Shown here one piece after another: positions 5,582-56,561 of a DNA stretch of 64,000 bases. Both the position numbers and the translations under genes were made by a program. Source of the stretch: a virus; IMG/VR virus record IMGVR_UViG_3300031787_000075, positions 1 to 64,000 of that record. One strand, written 5' to 3'. Within the stretch, counting starts at the first letter, position 1; the number at the start of each line of letters is the position of its first letter. The notes beneath the pieces are model-generated. The model made no database searches. It was not told the origin of the DNA and worked only from the letters and a program-made list of their open reading frames with translations.

Positions 5582-8500
5582 TTAAGACCTTTCTGAACCT
5601 ACTACTTCCATTGAACTAGAGTACAATATTACTATTTCGTTTCCATTAAATTCTGTAATTGTATTGCAGGCATGACCACGCAAATCATCTCCGTTTATCA
5701 ATCCATTTCTTTTTTGGGCATCGTTTAAAGGAGTTCCAAATCTTAAATAGTTTTTGTTTGTGGCAGCATGATAAACGCCTTCTTTCATCCTGTATTGAGC
5801 GCCTTTTATTTCGCTTTCTTGTCCATTAGGATTTACTTCGGAAGGTGGTATGGATTGAAATGAAATCAATGGAACCCTATTGCTTCTTAAAGAATGAGCG
5901 TCAAAAACTTTAACCTTCTTTGGTTCTACATTTGTAACCACACCAGCTTTCATGGTTTTAGCCTGCCCTAAAAAATTTAAAAAATCATCTCCGCTATTCA
6001 TTATCCAAATATTACCTTGATAGAAAGCTACTCCTAATCCAACGCAATCTCCATAATTATCAATAGGGTTTATTCCAAAACAATGGTCGTAAAATCCATG
6101 CCAGTAACCTTTATCCGGACACCAAGCTATTGCATCGTAAAACTCTTCATTTTTGGTTATTAAAACGTAAAGTAATTTGTTTTCTTGATCCCAACCAGTA
6201 ATAACCTCCGAATCTGCTTCTCCTGATAATTGTTCTGAAACGTCTTGCCAAAACCTTATGGCCTTTCTTTTGGATATGTCTTCGCTTCCGTTTGGAGAAT
6301 TTCTAACAAAGCATCGGTTTAGCACGTCAAAAAAGTAAACACTTCTTTCGTTTACATAGACAGACTCCGGATGCTTGGTTCCGTAACTATCCTCTGAATA
6401 GTTTATTGAACCTATTAGCGAATCCGTAACAACAAGCTGTGTGCTTCCATCTGCGTTTTGAATTTGTCTTCTACCTATAAAGGCAGAACTGATATTGGAC
6501 CATTGCAGTATCTTCATGGTGTAACCAATAAGCCTCAACCCTGTTATTGCTCCATACTTTTGCTCCAGTATTCTGTAATCGCCTTCATAAAAAACATTAG
6601 TGTTATTTACGTTGGTGTTTTCAAATAGCTTTCCTGTCCACCTCAACATTGAAAATATGTTTTGACTTTTCATGTTAGGGGTTTCGGCCTGCACCCTTCC
6701 TTTGGAATAAAATTCAGACCTCCACCATTCAGATATGCTAAAACTTTCTATATGGTATTGTCCAGGCTTTGACGCATCTGAACCCATAGACCTCCATCTT
6801 TTGTAAATATTGCCTGCATAGGTTTCAAATCCTGAACCTAATCCATAAGACCTTGCTTCTGTTCCGGGGTCAATTATCTCTCCGTATTGAATACCTGAAT
6901 CATACTCATTCATTGGCAATTCAAAGTAAACCGGTTCAAATCCTGGCTGATAAACCTCAAATAAAGTATTGTCACCTATTTTTGAGGCAGGATACCCGAA
7001 ATCTGAAATGCTTATTACAGGATATCCGCTTCCATCTAATTTAACACTCAATATTTGAACATCTATGTATTGAGGCACAATTATTCTATTGGTATCATCC
7101 AAATCGTTGTCGTGTTGGGTTTGCGTTAAAAACCTTAACCTGTTTCCTGCCCATTCAGTGTATTCAAAATCAACCACTCCCTTTGAACCAAATCTTATAG
7201 AAGAAATTGTTGGGTTATTTCCTTCCACAAAAAACTTATAAGAAGCTACGGTTATTTCAATCACATTATCTACATAATGTATATTCGATAAAGTAAAAAA
7301 CGCGCATTTTTTTACGTTGCATTTATGGACTATTTTAAAATACTTTGCCCATATCGGAGGTTGTGTTGTTATGTTTATTTTGGCTCCGTACTTCTTAGGA
7401 ATGTATTCATAGGAATCTGATATTGGATACCTTTCTTGAACAAATGGTATGTATAACTCTCCTAAAACCTCTGTTGCGCCCTGCCTCATAAATTCATCAA
7501 AATGAACTATGGCAAATTTATGTGTGGCACCTTCTTTAAATGCTTGTTCAGGATTGTTTGTGCTATAAACATAAGAGTCGTTTATTTTATATCCTATCAA
7601 TGGATTTACTAATGTTCCATATAAATAGTTGCTTACAGAGTTCCAAAATATATCGGCTCCAACAATATTAGTTAAAGCAATAGAAAGATTTGTTCCAAAA
7701 GTATTTAACGAAGCTATGTCTGCAGATGTTAAAACATAAGACCAACTATAAGTTTCTGTGTCTGTCGGAGAAGAAACGATTGAATATGTTCCATAAACAA
7801 TATCTCCTACACTTCTGCTTGCCACAGAAGACACTATTGATATGAAATAAGGAGGTGTGGGGTCAATAACCACTAACTCTATTATTTTTTCAGGGTAAAA
7901 ATTAAAAACCAAGCTTTCTTCTATTTCTTCTATTTCAGCTTCCACTCCAATTGGATTGTAACCCTCGGTTATATCTCCATATAAAACTTGGTTTCCTGGA
8001 ACTATTTCTTGTTGGTTAGCTAATTGAGGTATGGCATAAAAATTTGTTTCGGCTTCGATATCGCTTAATGCGATCGTTTCTTCATCTCCGTAAAAATTAA
8101 CAGAATTTACTGGGGCATCTATTTCAGCAAACCTATACCAATTAGGATTTGTTTCTCCCGAACCTGCTCCATTTCCTTCCCTAACAAACCATTCAACCTT
8201 TTCAACGGTTTCATGTATTGGCGCTGTACTATAAACAGAAATGTAGTTGAAATCGTCTGAACCTGATATTGGTCTATCAAAATTTAAGTAAAAGCCTTCT
8301 TTTTTCCATAACAAACTTATTTCGCTAAATGGGCTTAAAGGGGAGTATTCTCCATCCTTGTACTTGTATCTTAGCGCGAATTGGTAATGGTTGTATGGCA
8401 GAAAGTTTGTCTTCCTATTAAAGTCTTTTTGAAAAGAAAGCATGGGGCTTCTTTGCGGCTGAATCTTGCCAACACTAATCCAAAACTTATCTATATCTAA

Positions 8501-13616: not shown

Positions 13617-15203
13617 CTATTGAGGCCTTACATTGATAAAACGGTTTGAACCGAAAAACTCTGCGAAAAACTCACACATCATGTTTACATTACGAACGTC
13701 ATTTTCGTCTGTTGAGTAAGGTCTTGCATTTGCGCCGGTTTCCCAAACCTTCATTCTACGGCTATAACCACCAAGGCCGCGATAAACAATACCCATTGTA
13801 GGTATGCTATTTTTGGTTTTAGGGTCTTTACGTTTTGCTAATGGAATAACAAATCCTCTTTGATTATAGTCATAGGTATCTGCACCATATAGTTTTGGAT
13901 GATAGAAAGCATCTACGTTTTTAATACAGAAAGTAAAGCCATCAACGGTAACGTATTTGAATCCAATGGCCATTTCTGTTTGTCTGCCATCATCATCCAT
14001 GTTTCCAAATAAATGGGCTTGCGCTCTTTCGATAAACACCGCTGCGGTATCTTTGTTGGTTTCGAACAAGCTTTGATCTAATTCTTGTCCTAAGTCAAGA
14101 CCTACGAAAAATGCAGCATATCTATCTGTATATTTCTTCTTCATTAATTTAGAGAAGTTATAGAAATCTTGCATTTCCCATGCTCCTGGTGTGTATGGAT
14201 AAAACTCTGAATTAAGGTTCATTTCAGGAATTAAACCTCTAGTACCTTCTCCAACTAAGGATGCGTTAGCGTTGTTACCATCAACGGCTAATGTACTTGT
14301 AGCTACCTTACCTGATAAGAAAGCGCCTTGGATTTTTAATTGTTGCTCATACTCTAGGTCTAAGAAACCTTTATTTGCCCAAGTTCCTACGTGCTCACCA
14401 TCTACTGATTGAATCCATGACTCGGTGGCAAGTTCACGTCCAGAAGCTTTACGCTTTGATTTAATGGTTTGTGAAGAGTTTTGCCATTTGTAAACACCTT
14501 GTAAGATAGAACTTGGCTGTCCACTACCCTCCGAAGCATAAGAAGTAATAATCGCTAACTTAGTGTTTGCAGCTACGGCAGGAATTGTATCTGTCGCATC
14601 TACTGGGGCAACCGTTAAAATCGGAGCGCTAGGAGTAGTTACGTTGATAGCTGTGATAACACCTAAAATATCATTAGGGAATAATACCGCATGACCGATT
14701 TGAGGAAAATACTTGTTGTCAGAAGTTACAGACTCCGGTGCTAATGTAAATCTACAAGCCGTATTCACAGTAGGAGTATATGCGCCTCCACCTGTTGCTG
14801 TTTGGCTTAAAGAAGTAAACGTGTTCCAGATCCATTCTTCTTCGTAATGTTCCAAAATATCAACCCCATCTGTCCTTACAAAACCTAATGCGTGAATGGT
14901 GTCGAAAAATTCTTTACCCTGCGTACCGAACCTACGATACAATTGAGGTAAAACTTTTCTAGCGTTAAGGTCTAACGTGGTTATGTAGTTGTTGAAATAG
15001 TCGGCAGTAATGGCCGGGGCAGTAGGGTTTGAACCTAAAGCATTTACAGGTAAAGCACCTGAAATAGAGAAAAAGCCTAATACAACAAATGTGGTTAAGG
15101 CTGTGGCACCTAAATCGGTTTCATAACTAGCCGAAATTGGAGCGGCAAAGACAAAGCTTGCCATAATTAGCGCAATGAGCGCGAATAAGATATTTTTTTT
15201 CAT
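13617..15203 (-). CDS. major capsid protein (crAss-like HK97 fold) with an N-terminal hydrophobic leader
   Basis: follows portal and scaffold; motifs EHYEEEW, WQNSSQTIK..ASG, GTRGLIP, GFKYVTVDGFTF; strong terminator; ATG at 15203 lies 1 nt after the scaffold stop. Confidence 0.85.
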   Translation of the reverse strand: MKKNILFALIALIMASFVFAAPISASYETDLGATALTTFVVLGFFSISGALPVNALGSNPTAPAITADYFNNYITTLDLNARKVLPQLYRRFGTQGKEFFDTIHALGFVRTDGVDILEHYEEEWIWNTFTSLSQTATGGGAYTPTVNTACRFTLAPESVTSDNKYFPQIGHAVLFPNDILGVITAINVTTPSAPILTVAPVDATDTIPAVAANTKLAIITSYASEGSGQPSSILQGVYKWQNSSQTIKSKRKASGRELATESWIQSVDGEHVGTWANKGFLDLEYEQQLKIQGAFLSGKVATSTLAVDGNNANASLVGEGTRGLIPEMNLNSEFYPYTPGAWEMQDFYNFSKLMKKKYTDRYAAFFVGLDLGQELDQSLFETNKDTAAVFIERAQAHLFGNMDDDGRQTEMAIGFKYVTVDGFTFCIKNVDAFYHPKLYGADTYDYNQRGFVIPLAKRKDPKTKNSIPTMGIVYRGLGGYSRRMKVWETGANARPYSTDENDVRNVNMMCEFFAEFFGSNRFINVRPQ

Positions 15204-15204
15204 T

Positions 15205-16266
15205 TTAATCTTCGAATAATTGTGATTCAAAACTCTTAGCGGATTTGCCTCGCGGCTGTTCTCCAGAATTTCTGCTTTTAAAAGCGCTTGGATTATCAAG
15301 TTCAATCTCAAATTGTTCAACTATCTCTTGCTCGCGTTGTTTAATTGCGGCATGGATAATTGTTTTGAAATTCTCGGTAATAGCGTTGTTAATTACAGCG
15401 GCTCTAATGTTAGGAAGAGTTTGTTCCGTAACATCTATACCTTGTTTTGCGATTATCCTTGACATATTTTCTGCCGACTTAGCAATAAACTCTTCCGGAA
15501 TGGCAAAATCCATGACTTTAACCACTTTTCCATCTTTGTCTGCTGCTTCAATCGGAATAGCTTTAATGTCGGCAATCGCCTTCATTATTTGAGGCTTTGT
15601 TGACTCGTATCTTTGGTTAACAGCGGTTTCAATCGACTCTTTTGATACCGGAGAGAATTTAAGGTCTTGGTACTGCTTTAGCATCTCGCGAAGCGGTTTA
15701 ACCCTTTCCTTCAACTCAATCATTTTGACATCAATTTCGTCTTGACTAAGCGTTCCATTGTCTTCTAGCCCATGCTGTCTTTCGATTTCTTTCCGTAAAA
15801 TAGACTCCTTACCTATCAGTTCAGGATTTTTAAGAACTCTGTCGGCCACCATTATCTCAATTGGGTCGGCAGTTTCCGCTTGTAAACCCTTTACATAATT
15901 AAAGGTTTGGAAATCATTAATTCCGGTTTTTTTAACGAACTCGTTGAAACCTGCTATGGTTTCATTAGCGAATGGGTTAGAATTTAAAGATTTCAAGTCT
16001 TCAATTTCTTGTAGTTTGGTTTCGTATTCTCTGGCTTTTGATACAAAATCAGGGATTTTTGTTTTTAATTCATCCCAATTATCGGCAACATCAAAATTTT
16101 CACCAAAAAAATCTTTTGGAGAAGGCAATTGTGCTTGTTGGGTTTGCGCCTGTTGCGATTGTTGAGATTGCTGCTGCTGTTGTTGGCTAGAACCACCGGG
16201 CTCACCACCATCTGCAGGCTTAAATCCTCCTAATTCTGAATAAAAATCATCGTTTTCTGTGTTCAT
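15205..16266 (-). CDS. capsid scaffolding protein (putative)
   Basis: acidic/Gln-rich N-terminus, coiled coil, located between portal and capsid genes. Confidence 0.7.
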   Translation of the reverse strand: MNTENDDFYSELGGFKPADGGEPGGSSQQQQQQSQQSQQAQTQQAQLPSPKDFFGENFDVADNWDELKTKIPDFVSKAREYETKLQEIEDLKSLNSNPFANETIAGFNEFVKKTGINDFQTFNYVKGLQAETADPIEIMVADRVLKNPELIGKESILRKEIERQHGLEDNGTLSQDEIDVKMIELKERVKPLREMLKQYQDLKFSPVSKESIETAVNQRYESTKPQIMKAIADIKAIPIEAADKDGKVVKVMDFAIPEEFIAKSAENMSRIIAKQGIDVTEQTLPNIRAAVINNAITENFKTIIHAAIKQREQEIVEQFEIELDNPSAFKSRNSGEQPRGKSAKSFESQLFED

Positions 16267-20993: not shown

Positions 20994-21582
20994 TAGGATT
21001 TTCTCTTAATTTTATGGCAATTTCTTCCGGTGTTAATTCTACCTTTTCTTCCAAGTAGTATCGTTGTAGTCTTCTAATTAAAACATCTGAACTTTCAGAT
21101 TTTATAATTTGATTTCTTGTAGCCAACAATTCTTTTTCTGCTTCGGTTAATGTTTTTATGGAATCTTTTTCTCCAGTCAACAATTCTTTTGAGGCTCTAT
21201 AATAAACCTGCATTAATACATGATATTTCTGCCAACGAATATCATTTGTCATTATCAGGTACCTACAAATCATTTCATTGATTATTGGATCCTCGCAAAC
21301 AATCATTTTTTCTACATTCTCCGAAAATTTTCCATTTTCTTTTTTAAACCCGGCAAGTTCGGCAGAAATTAGTTTGGCTCTTAAGGCATCTTTAACCTCT
21401 TCTAGTATAGGAGAATTTGGGTCATAGAAATATATGATATATTTTAATACATTCTTTCTTGGCAATGAAGATACAGCATAAAACTCTTGGTGTTTATTAA
21501 AACCTTCAAAAACCAAAAAAGGGTCTTGATTACCCTTTAATGTGTCAACTCTAAATGTTAGATTAGAAAAATCAAATTCCAT
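20977..21582 (-). CDS. hypothetical protein, candidate terminase small subunit
   Basis: helical ~200 aa ORF overlapping the terL start. Confidence 0.45.
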   Translation of the reverse strand: MEFDFSNLTFRVDTLKGNQDPFLVFEGFNKHQEFYAVSSLPRKNVLKYIIYFYDPNSPILEEVKDALRAKLISAELAGFKKENGKFSENVEKMIVCEDPIINEMICRYLIMTNDIRWQKYHVLMQVYYRASKELLTGEKDSIKTLTEAEKELLATRNQIIKSESSDVLIRRLQRYYLEEKVELTPEEIAIKLRENPSELPV

Positions 21583-22114
21583 CGGCAAGTTTATTAATAG
21601 CCATTTTGCCTAAAAATAAAAATATGGAAACTCCTCCAATAAAAGCCAATGCCTTCATCCACCATGGGGTATGCGTTATGACTCTAACAATTGGAGGCAA
21701 TGTTTTAACCTTTTCTTTGGTGCTTAACTTATAAGTTAAATTTTTTATTGTGGTTTCCTGCTCTTTAATCTTAGAACTAAATCTGCTTACTGAACCCTGT
21801 AAGTTAACTTTTAAGTCTATCATTCCGTTTTTAACAGATACATCAAAAACATCTCCTCCTCTTACAATTCTTGTTTTGGCTCCATCTACGCATGGCAAAC
21901 TTTGTTGAACAACTAAGCTATCTTTAATAACTACTGAATCTTTAATGTTCAATACGGTCTTAACAGATATGGAATCCTTTATCCTAATAGAATCTTTAAT
22001 GGCAATAGAATCGTGACTAGGACAAATCTTTTGCGCTCTTTGGCAGGGGGTCTTTCTAACCCCACAGCCAAAAAAGTAAACAGCAAATAACAATACTATT
22101 GTAATACGGCCCAT
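21572..22114 (-). CDS. putative unimolecular spanin (lipoprotein with C-terminal TM)
   Basis: signal peptide with lipobox FFGC, C-terminal PWWMKALAFIGGVSIFLFL; in the lysis cassette. Confidence 0.7.
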   Translation of the reverse strand: MGRITIVLLFAVYFFGCGVRKTPCQRAQKICPSHDSIAIKDSIRIKDSISVKTVLNIKDSVVIKDSLVVQQSLPCVDGAKTRIVRGGDVFDVSVKNGMIDLKVNLQGSVSRFSSKIKEQETTIKNLTYKLSTKEKVKTLPPIVRVITHTPWWMKALAFIGGVSIFLFLGKMAINKLADGI

Positions 22115-22897: not shown

Positions 22898-23481
22898 GCG
22901 TTTACTTTTTCAAACGAATATATAATTTGTTTTGGTGCTTTTTCATCTCCTCCAAAATATCCTGGGGCAGAAAAGCCTGCTAGACTTGGAATACTTTGTG
23001 AAAAAGAAAAGGTTTGGAAATCGTCTATTACAGGGTAAGTGTGTAAAAATGATGACCTTATACTTTTAGAATACCTAAAATTTACAATTTGCTTGTCTTG
23101 CTGTGGGTTAACTATTAAAAATATTTTTTCATCAACCTTTAGGTTTATTATAGGAAAATTTCCTAGTTCAGCCCAAATAGTCATTCCGTTTTGGTGGACG
23201 TATGGGGCAACTTGAAAGCACTCCAACTCCGGTTTCCATCTCCATGACCAACGGCTGCTATTGATTTTCATTTGGAATTGCTTTGCCAATGGAAACAATC
23301 CCCAGCTTGCGCCAAACAATTTATTCCAATCGTCTTGGTTAACCACATCTTTGGTTTCGTAAATAGCATCTTTACCAAAACTAATCATTGCGGCCATGGT
23401 TCCGGTACCAAAAAGATTTAGCCTCAAACCAGTAAATTGATTTGAGGCCAAGTGACAATTTTTGTTTATTCTAACCTTCAT
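22885..23481 (-). CDS. hypothetical beta-sandwich protein in the lysis region
   Basis: 198 aa, WNKLFG and YFGGDEKAP motifs; overlaps both neighbours. Confidence 0.55.
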   Translation of the reverse strand: MKVRINKNCHLASNQFTGLRLNLFGTGTMAAMISFGKDAIYETKDVVNQDDWNKLFGASWGLFPLAKQFQMKINSSRWSWRWKPELECFQVAPYVHQNGMTIWAELGNFPIINLKVDEKIFLIVNPQQDKQIVNFRYSKSIRSSFLHTYPVIDDFQTFSFSQSIPSLAGFSAPGYFGGDEKAPKQIIYSFEKVNAWIG

Positions 23482-23857
23482 TGCTTTTTCGTTGCAAGAA
23501 ATTAAATAATCCTTTTAAAATATCTGTGCCAGTAATTGCTTCTATATTTTCTCTCATTGACTGCAATTCTGTTAGGGCAATTATGGCTACCAATGGCTTT
23601 ACTAATGGAATATTGCTTTCGTCTGCAAAATACAATTCACACGCTCGAACCATCATTAAAGCAACTAGGTAGGCAGAACCAGTATAAAATTTCTTTATCA
23701 TGGATCTACTATTAAAATTTCCTTTTTTGGAGCCTTTTATCATTCCAGTCACCCAATCAAACATCACAAGGCTGCCAACAAATAAAAGTGAGGTATAAAT
23801 AGGAGCCAAATAAGCTACTATTCCCGCAATAACAAGTGGCAGATATTTTTCGTACAT
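23471..23857 (-). CDS. holin
   Basis: three hydrophobic segments, DWVTG and ELQSMREN motifs of the phage holin 4-like family. Confidence 0.8.
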   Translation of the reverse strand: MYEKYLPLVIAGIVAYLAPIYTSLLFVGSLVMFDWVTGMIKGSKKGNFNSRSMIKKFYTGSAYLVALMMVRACELYFADESNIPLVKPLVAIIALTELQSMRENIEAITGTDILKGLFNFLQRKSNEG

Positions 23858-56475: not shown

Positions 56476-56479
56476 ATTG

Positions 56480-56561
56480 TGGGGAGGACAGGATTCGAAC
56501 CTGCACGATGTTTTAGTTGTCGTTACCAACCTTACTACCACCATTCCACATCTACCTCCCC
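56480..56561 (-). ncRNA. tRNA-like element (intact acceptor and T arms, non-canonical D/anticodon region)
   Basis: GGGGAGG...GCAGG-TTCGAAT-CCTGT-CCTCCCC-A. Confidence 0.65.

Follow-up and report, generated by a model that had tools for sequence, protein, structure and literature searches.

A signal-peptide-like N-terminal leader on the HK97-fold major capsid protein of an uncultured tailed phage

Tailed-phage heads are textbook cytoplasmic assemblies, and a membrane-type leader on a capsid protein that assembles in the cytoplasm is therefore unexpected. Such a leader is found in the virus record IMGVR_UViG_3300031787_000075, of which we analysed bases 1-64000 (hereafter the window; the whole record comprises 73,532 bases and is rated 100% complete by CheckV). 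The genome is that of an uncultured tailed phage of 73.5 kb, and the question raised by this locus is what the first 57 residues of its major capsid protein (MCP, P0001) are for. Our preferred answer, to which we assign a probability of roughly 0.4, is that residues 1-57 are a transient membrane-targeting leader on an otherwise ordinary HK97-fold coat protein and would be removed near residues 57-60; the function is a putative one, proposed from features of the sequence and of its relatives.

That the 528-residue protein is a major capsid protein with the HK97 fold, as the original prediction on this DNA had stated, is borne out by a PHROG match, relatives carrying PF17236, and a structural model with the matches retrieved by it. 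The protein matches PHROG 13704, annotated as 'virion structural protein' (E 1.1e-24), and tblastn aligns it with capsid or structural proteins of the Cellulophaga phages phi38:1, phi40:1 and Calle_1-3 at 23.5-23.8% identity. A Pfam scan of the window MCP returned no family at E up to 0.01, and the link to PF17236 (SU10_MCP) runs through relatives only; this family is carried, according to precomputed annotation, by MCP relatives at E 1e-51 to 1e-64, the PF17236-bearing relatives being 28-30% identical to the window MCP, whose membership in the SU10_MCP-like family is thus one by transitive homology only. The AlphaFold2 model, computed from an alignment of 150 MCP relatives, reaches a mean predicted local distance difference test score (pLDDT) of 87.2 and a predicted template modelling score (pTM) of 0.76. 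Searched with Foldseek, it retrieves 270 PDB chains at E up to 0.001, those shown at the top ranks being phage capsid proteins, with the best matches to crAss001 (7qof_B, E 5.7e-20), Vibrio phage VP1 (9in6_M) and SU10 (7z46_J).

The only frame and start that this gene can use include the leader. As had been noted, the MCP ATG (position 15203) comes one base after the TAA of the upstream gene. It had also been claimed that after residue 14 no methionine follows until deep in the capsid fold, which would make the leader hard to bypass; methionines do occur only at residues 1 and 14 and then at 328 and beyond, and the claim extends to the other standard starts, the first in-frame ATG, GTG or TTG after codon 14 being the TTG at codon 88. 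Because of this gap the leader is not bypassable by a standard start, and an internal start is ruled out for standard codons; the first alternative, the TTG at codon 88, falls behind Y69 and D78, two residues that do not vary across the aligned family. The 57 residues missing from leaderless MCP relatives correspond to positions 15033-15203, so that the interval given previously (15036-15203) was 3 nt off at its start, the residues quoted with it being exact.

The leader has the three-part build of a Sec-type signal, namely a basic n-region, a hydrophobic h-region and small residues, and is continued by an acidic loop and a second helix (Table 1). The basic N-terminus and the two hydrophobic segments described in the original prediction are recovered as the MKK start, as Kyte-Doolittle peaks (19-residue window) of 2.66 at residues 5-23 and 1.85 at residues 35-53, and as helices 2-27 and 31-48 of the AlphaFold2 model; outside the leader the MCP never rises above 1.42. 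The run of residues 4-27 has a mean hydrophobicity of 1.91, and the uncharged run of residues 31-67, which includes the second segment, consists of Gly, Ala, Ser and Thr to 51%. In the model the two helices are joined by a turn (pLDDT 83-91) and a disordered stretch (residues 54-83, with pLDDT below 50 at residues 54-66 and 71-83) precedes the fold. The window MCP thus presents both a positively charged n-region and a hydrophobic h-region, as Sec signals do, the latter of about 16-20 residues and, in our reading, rather long for a cleaved signal. The small residues V18-F19-A20, then A21-P22, come after the h-region; V18-F19-A20 before A21 appears, by eye, to fit the -3/-1 small-residue rule, and similar triplets are present in relatives. 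Both the hydrophobicity scales and this -3/-1 reading are our own choice. What characterizes a hairpin, that is two membrane-type helices with a short loop devoid of basic residues, is likewise present.

Among the 74 non-overlapping ATG-initiated open reading frames (ORFs) of at least 70 amino acids in the window, a comparable hydrophobic segment was flagged in only four. Besides the MCP these are the holin, a spanin-like protein and an ORF whose segment is internal. Such segments are thus rare in the window, and comparable leaders are seen again in 28 related sequences, so that chance does not account for this one. We also considered an origin of the leader by internal duplication. A weak 16-nt direct repeat (15033-15048 versus 15108-15123), with copies 75% identical and 75 nt (25 codons) apart, encodes the end of the loop (E-T-D-L-G) and the end of the second segment (V-N-A-L-G). 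It may be the trace of a duplication or a coincidence; we treat it as chance and reject this origin.

A first protein search returned 18 relatives, which divide evenly. An alignment with related capsid proteins had been proposed as a check on conservation of the leader, and all nine relatives at 54-84% identity carry an N-terminal hydrophobic extension, whereas the nine at 28-33% identity begin at the column of window residues 58-62. Exhaustive searching gave 658 MCP family members at E up to 0.001, from which, fragments shorter than 400 aa being dropped, 150 representatives were drawn and aligned. A hydrophobic leader is present in 23 of them; the 127 without it include eight with a longer, non-hydrophobic N-terminus, and the remaining ones start 15-29 residues before the D78 column. 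Two additional scans of viral contigs contributed 20 distinct loci, seven with a leader (L055-L059, L074 and L060, the last with a GTG start) and 13 leaderless. In the 28 related leaders, uncharged runs of 16-28 residues follow an n-region that in 26 of them bears a charge of +1 to +5 and is free of acidic residues; the exceptions, P0009 and P0021, start inside the hydrophobic stretch, as if their start calls were truncated. Where two segments are present the loops between them are short and mostly acidic. The junction with the capsid body shows a conserved x-L-(A/G), then P-A-(A/V)-T-A-D-Y, in 16 of 18 window-clade sequences right-justified on the N-arm (a set from which P0020 and L060, whose pattern did not fit, were left out), and this motif coincides with the point at which leaderless proteins start.

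The leaderless relatives are, to judge from their upstream sequence, truly leaderless: in 49 of 50 viral loci an in-frame stop lies 1-18 codons upstream of the MCP start, and the exception, L002, bears a leader (L047, with its match cut at the locus end, is not part of this count). The structural relatives crAss001 gp32 and phi38:1 gp093 have no leader either, and leader-bearing sequences are metagenomic in all 10 clusters looked up, with no cultured leader-bearing phage among these. A separate small membrane-protein gene as fusion source of the leader was also sought and rejected, since none lies between the gene upstream of the MCP and the MCP itself in 12 loci. As an observation apart, two loci with leaderless MCPs encode downstream structural proteins of 484-508 aa with a hydrophobic N-terminal segment (L072, 12143-13669 and 13671-15125; L073, 12921-14441), and signal-like leaders may therefore sit on other virion proteins in that phage group.

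Leader-bearing proteins form four groups, which are a clade of 14 including the window MCP, all of whose members carry the leader down to 34-39% identity, a clade of six that are likewise all leader-bearing, a pair, and P0101 alone. A FastTree tree built from the alignment columns after the leader requires at least four leader changes, and IQ-TREE on a reduced set of 57 rows gives four again; a single clade for all 23 leader-bearers is rejected by the approximately unbiased (AU) test (p-AU 0.0002, LG+G4), the group having been named after the first tree was seen. By these trees, which do not separate gain from loss, the leader has been gained or lost at least four times within one capsid family. 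Its sequence changes fast: against P0002 and P0003 the window leader is 49% and 47% identical, compared with 88% and 89% for the body, and the hydrophobic profile is kept. For the pair L056 and L059 the ratio of non-synonymous to synonymous substitution rates (dN/dS) is 0.52 in the leader, a value from 29 codons only and hence too few to weigh, and 0.21 in the body. Taken as a whole, the comparisons suggest that the leader is a real, translated and selected membrane-targeting extension, retained across deep divergence, with a sequence that drifts about as freely as that of signal peptides.

How might such an extension act? In our preferred reading, that of a transient membrane-targeting leader, the two helices would enter the membrane as a hairpin that has both its ends on the cytoplasmic side and its loop outside, a topology that the short, acidic loop would fit. 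With the C-terminus of the hairpin in the cytoplasm, the capsid domain would stay there as well, held at the inner membrane on a flexible tether of about 30 residues. The leader would then be cut close to residues 57-60, after the x-L-(A/G) motif, leaving the same N-terminus that leaderless relatives start with, and the cut would be made by a host enzyme before or during entry of the subunit into the shell. The N-arm of HK97-fold shell proteins faces the procapsid interior; for this reason a closed procapsid would not be tied to the membrane by its subunits, and removal of the leader would have to precede or accompany incorporation. The original prediction had proposed membrane-templated procapsid assembly, which we consider less probable than a tethering of subunits that are still free, the leader being lost before they enter the shell or as they do so. 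As to the benefit, our guess is a control over where and when free coat protein is available.

The identity of the cutting enzyme was approached by searching the whole record in six frames. It had been stated that no prohead protease was recognised, and this stands for the four Pfam families searched (S78, S77, ClpP and S49), with no matches at E up to 1; rhomboid (PF01694) gave none at E up to 10, nor did the Pfam families S26 (signal peptidase) and M50 (S2P) match. Named control genomes were matched in every search except that for S77, where the cut-off was reached in none. Rhomboid was found in none of five related leader-bearing records either, these being only 44-76% complete, and no multi-spanning ORF was flagged in the hydrophobicity scan of the window. 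If the leader is removed, the agent is likely to be an enzyme of the host, no phage protease having turned up in these searches.

Several findings weigh against this reading. Of the 23 leader-bearing representatives 12 have one segment and 11 have two, and the two forms alternate within clades; there are sister lineages with only one signal-like segment, and P0004, whose body is 79% identical to that of the window MCP, lacks about 25 leader residues. Since close relatives have one segment only, the full two-helix hairpin is not required and not what selection keeps as such. A single segment after a basic N-terminus would put the capsid domain outside the cytoplasm or act as a secretion signal, and an anchor on the cytoplasmic side is compatible with neither. 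The positive-inside signal for a cytoplasmic C-terminus is also weak as judged from residue composition, because few basic residues follow the second segment: only four of the 11 two-segment leaders have one directly behind it, and in the window MCP the first Lys or Arg from residue 4 onwards is R82, well behind the second helix. The x-L-(A/G) junction would moreover be exposed on the cytoplasmic side of the membrane, which is not where signal peptidase I cuts, and the Pfam searches could miss a divergent protease.

Other explanations have to be weighed against the same evidence. The leader might never enter the membrane and instead be a greasy N-terminal propeptide inside the procapsid, like a short delta domain, that bundles under the capsomers or binds the scaffold-position protein and is later trimmed or tolerated. 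This would suit the general knowledge that delta domains and propeptides sit at the N-terminus of HK97-fold coat proteins, the disordered linker joining leader to fold, the swaps between one and two segments within clades, as if only bulk hydrophobicity mattered, and the leaderless relatives, whose existence means that the fold itself has no need of a leader. We nevertheless regard it as unlikely. With a basic n-region that is free of acidic residues in 26 of 28 leaders, and with uncharged runs of 16-28 residues behind it, the leader is built like an export or anchor signal and not like a soluble helix; present in several hundred copies, such helices would aggregate if left in the cytoplasm. 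The scaffold position is already filled by a separate gene, and a prohead protease was not found. Distinctly improbable in our judgement is that the first segment serves as a true Sec signal, so that part of the coat protein is exported and cut by signal peptidase I, or blocks the translocon, while the rest builds capsids; possible uses would be a decoy, exclusion of other phages or host shut-off. The one-segment leaders of L055, P0135 and P0151 do resemble plain cleavable signal peptides directly before the N-arm, and small residues stand behind the h-region both in the window (V18-F19-A20) and in relatives. Yet the portal, the terminase and the scaffold-position protein are without a signal and DNA packaging is cytoplasmic; as no leaderless form arises from an internal start, every subunit that builds a capsid would have to escape export, and the second hydrophobic segment of the window MCP would act as a stop-transfer.

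The leader could also stay in the head, attached or cut but trapped, as several hundred membrane-active hairpins or a small lipid core that leaves with the DNA, and such peptides could help to breach or depolarise the inner membrane of the next host, like the lytic capsid peptides of non-enveloped animal viruses. The failure to find a removing protease gene is in keeping with this, as is the general knowledge that the N-arm faces the capsid interior, and no result speaks directly for it. We hold it to be very improbable, given that leaderless relatives with the same genome size and gene order show that the head needs no such cargo and that the leader sequence is poorly conserved. Membrane-containing phages, besides, encode many small membrane proteins, whereas the scan of the 74 window ORFs flagged, apart from the MCP, just two proteins of lysis type and an ORF whose hydrophobic segment is internal. 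Least probable of all is an artefact, in which the leader is not made, owing to a downstream unusual start codon, or arises from an accident of assembly or gene calling. ATT or ATA codons do stand at positions 47, 65 and 74, L002 has a TTG at codon 53, and Shine-Dalgarno motifs are so rare (15 of 74 ORFs) as to be useless for checking starts. Nonetheless, 28 sequences from independent assemblies keep this frame open and have a comparable leader, the leaders differ by in-frame insertions and deletions, some begin with GTG, and leaderless relatives close the frame within 1-18 codons; an accident of sequencing or gene calling is ruled out on account of the frame kept across independent assemblies, with its in-frame indels and GTG starts.

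If the leader is indeed a transient membrane-targeting extension, its retention in whole clades and its four or more changes within one capsid family would imply an undescribed step of head morphogenesis. This step could consist of membrane targeting of the most abundant late protein followed by processing by a probably host-encoded enzyme, whereas the known membrane links of tailed phages, those of T4 and SPN3US, run through the portal and not through the coat protein. Phage assembly would thereby be linked to the signal recognition particle (SRP), Sec and YidC machinery and the membrane proteases of the host, and a new handle on the control of free coat protein would be at hand. It would also follow that predictors calling such proteins 'secreted' mis-annotate capsid genes in metagenomes.

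The MCP gene sits in a minus-strand head module after the terminase, portal and scaffold-position genes (Table 1), an order that is identical in leader-bearing and leaderless phages. The original prediction had called the gene directly upstream of the MCP a scaffold; this label is owed only to its place in the head module, which is the same in 12 related loci, and the 353-residue protein matches no Pfam or PHROG family. The leader-bearing relative L055 has an additional ORF of 406 aa (5709-6929) between the portal and the scaffold-position gene, which the other loci are without.

Table 1. Positions of the leader, its parts and the genes of the head module in the window
Feature	Coordinates	Strand	Basis
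Major capsid protein (MCP) gene, 528 aa (P0001)	13617..15203	minus	ORF list; PHROG 13704; HK97-fold model
n-region, residues 1-3 (MKK), net charge +2	15195..15203	minus	sequence
Hydrophobic segment 1, residues 4-27, uncharged, signal-peptide-like h-region	15123..15194	minus	hydrophobicity; AlphaFold2 helix 2-27
Acidic loop, residues 28-30 (E28, T29, D30), no basic residue	15114..15122	minus	sequence; predicted turn between helices
Hydrophobic segment 2, residues 31-57, weakly hydrophobic, Gly/Ala/Ser/Thr-rich, ends A55-L56-G57	15033..15113	minus	hydrophobicity; AlphaFold2 helix 31-48
Junction and start of N-arm, residues 58-83, disordered in model; leaderless relatives begin at S58-N59-P60	14955..15032	minus	alignment, pLDDT
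Scaffold-position gene, 353 aa, Gln-rich N-terminus, no hydrophobic leader	15205..16266	minus	TAA 1 nt before MCP ATG
Portal protein, 776 aa, no hydrophobic segment	16308..18638	minus	PHROG 6547, E 1.3e-26
Terminase large subunit, 780 aa	18651..20993	minus	PHROG 6681, E 4.5e-54

Just upstream of the packaging genes, two ORFs mark a lysis region. A 128-residue membrane protein (23471-23857, minus strand) matches holin PHROG 199 (E 3.5e-7), and a 180-residue ORF (21572-22114, minus strand), without a match to any PHROG family, has the build of a unimolecular (one-piece) spanin, with a lipoprotein-like signal, in which F-F-G-C-G comes after hydrophobic initial residues, and a second hydrophobic stretch towards the C-terminus (residues 154-169). 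The sole ARAGORN call in the window is a tRNA-Val (anticodon AAC; 56479-56561, minus strand), unusual in its 83 nt and in having the anticodon at position 38, which may be a false call or contain an insertion. A Bacteroidota host is suggested by the Cellulophaga phage relatives, by the scarcity of Shine-Dalgarno motifs, the core of which precedes only 15 of the 74 ORFs, and by A-rich upstream regions (43% A in the 20 nt before starts, in a window of 36.9% G+C), with no firm host assignment; two contigs with leaderless MCPs are binned to metagenome-assembled genomes titled Acetivibrio sp. and Bacteroidetes bacterium.

Among the closest known systems are the SU10-type MCPs (PF17236) and those of Cellulophaga phages phi38:1 and Calle_1 (Pervagoviridae, Callevirus), which have a homologous body and the same fold as the window MCP, together with the order of terminase, portal, scaffold-position gene and MCP and a genome size, about 72-73 kb, similar to that of the window phage. 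These coat proteins, however, start directly with the N-arm, and phi38:1 gp093 is without a hydrophobic N-terminus. Soluble propeptides of coat proteins are known from HK97 (the delta domain), T4 (that of gp23) and 80alpha (leaders cleaved by the host Prp). The window leader resembles them in being an N-terminal extension that is missing in leaderless relatives and plausibly removed at a conserved junction; it differs in being of membrane type, in the scaffold-position protein being without it and in that no member of a prohead protease family was found. In phage endolysins with a signal-arrest-release (SAR) domain, which are exported enzymes, this domain comes first and is the sole N-terminal segment. 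The likeness to it lies in the second segment of the window leader, weakly hydrophobic and 51% Gly/Ala/Ser/Thr, a kind of helix able to leave the bilayer; in the window MCP, by contrast, this is the second of two segments and the passenger is expected to remain cytoplasmic.

On the side of head assembly, proheads of T4 and SPN3US form on the inner membrane and their release needs proteolysis, according to two reports (PMC9958956, PMC7411985), the anchor of the T4 prohead being the portal with gp40 and YidC (PMC9958956). A head step at the inner membrane with proteolytic release is what we propose for the window phage too. T4 and SPN3US use a portal anchor and a prohead protease of their own, whereas in the window phage a protease was not found, the portal has no hydrophobic segment and it is the coat protein that bears the anchor-type leader. 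The full-text literature searched, which lacks most subscription journals, yielded no coat protein of a tailed phage that bears a signal or transmembrane leader. In build, the nearest parallels are the Sec signal peptide and the procoat of the filamentous phage M13, a helical-hairpin precursor, to which the window leader is alike in the basic n-region, the h-region and the small residues, then in the acidic loop and second helix. The M13 coat protein has 50 residues and is kept in the membrane until extrusion, whereas the passenger of the window leader is an HK97-fold domain of 470 residues from a tailed phage. The leader belongs to neither class proper, its passenger being a cytoplasmic shell protein, and the likeness claimed is one of build.

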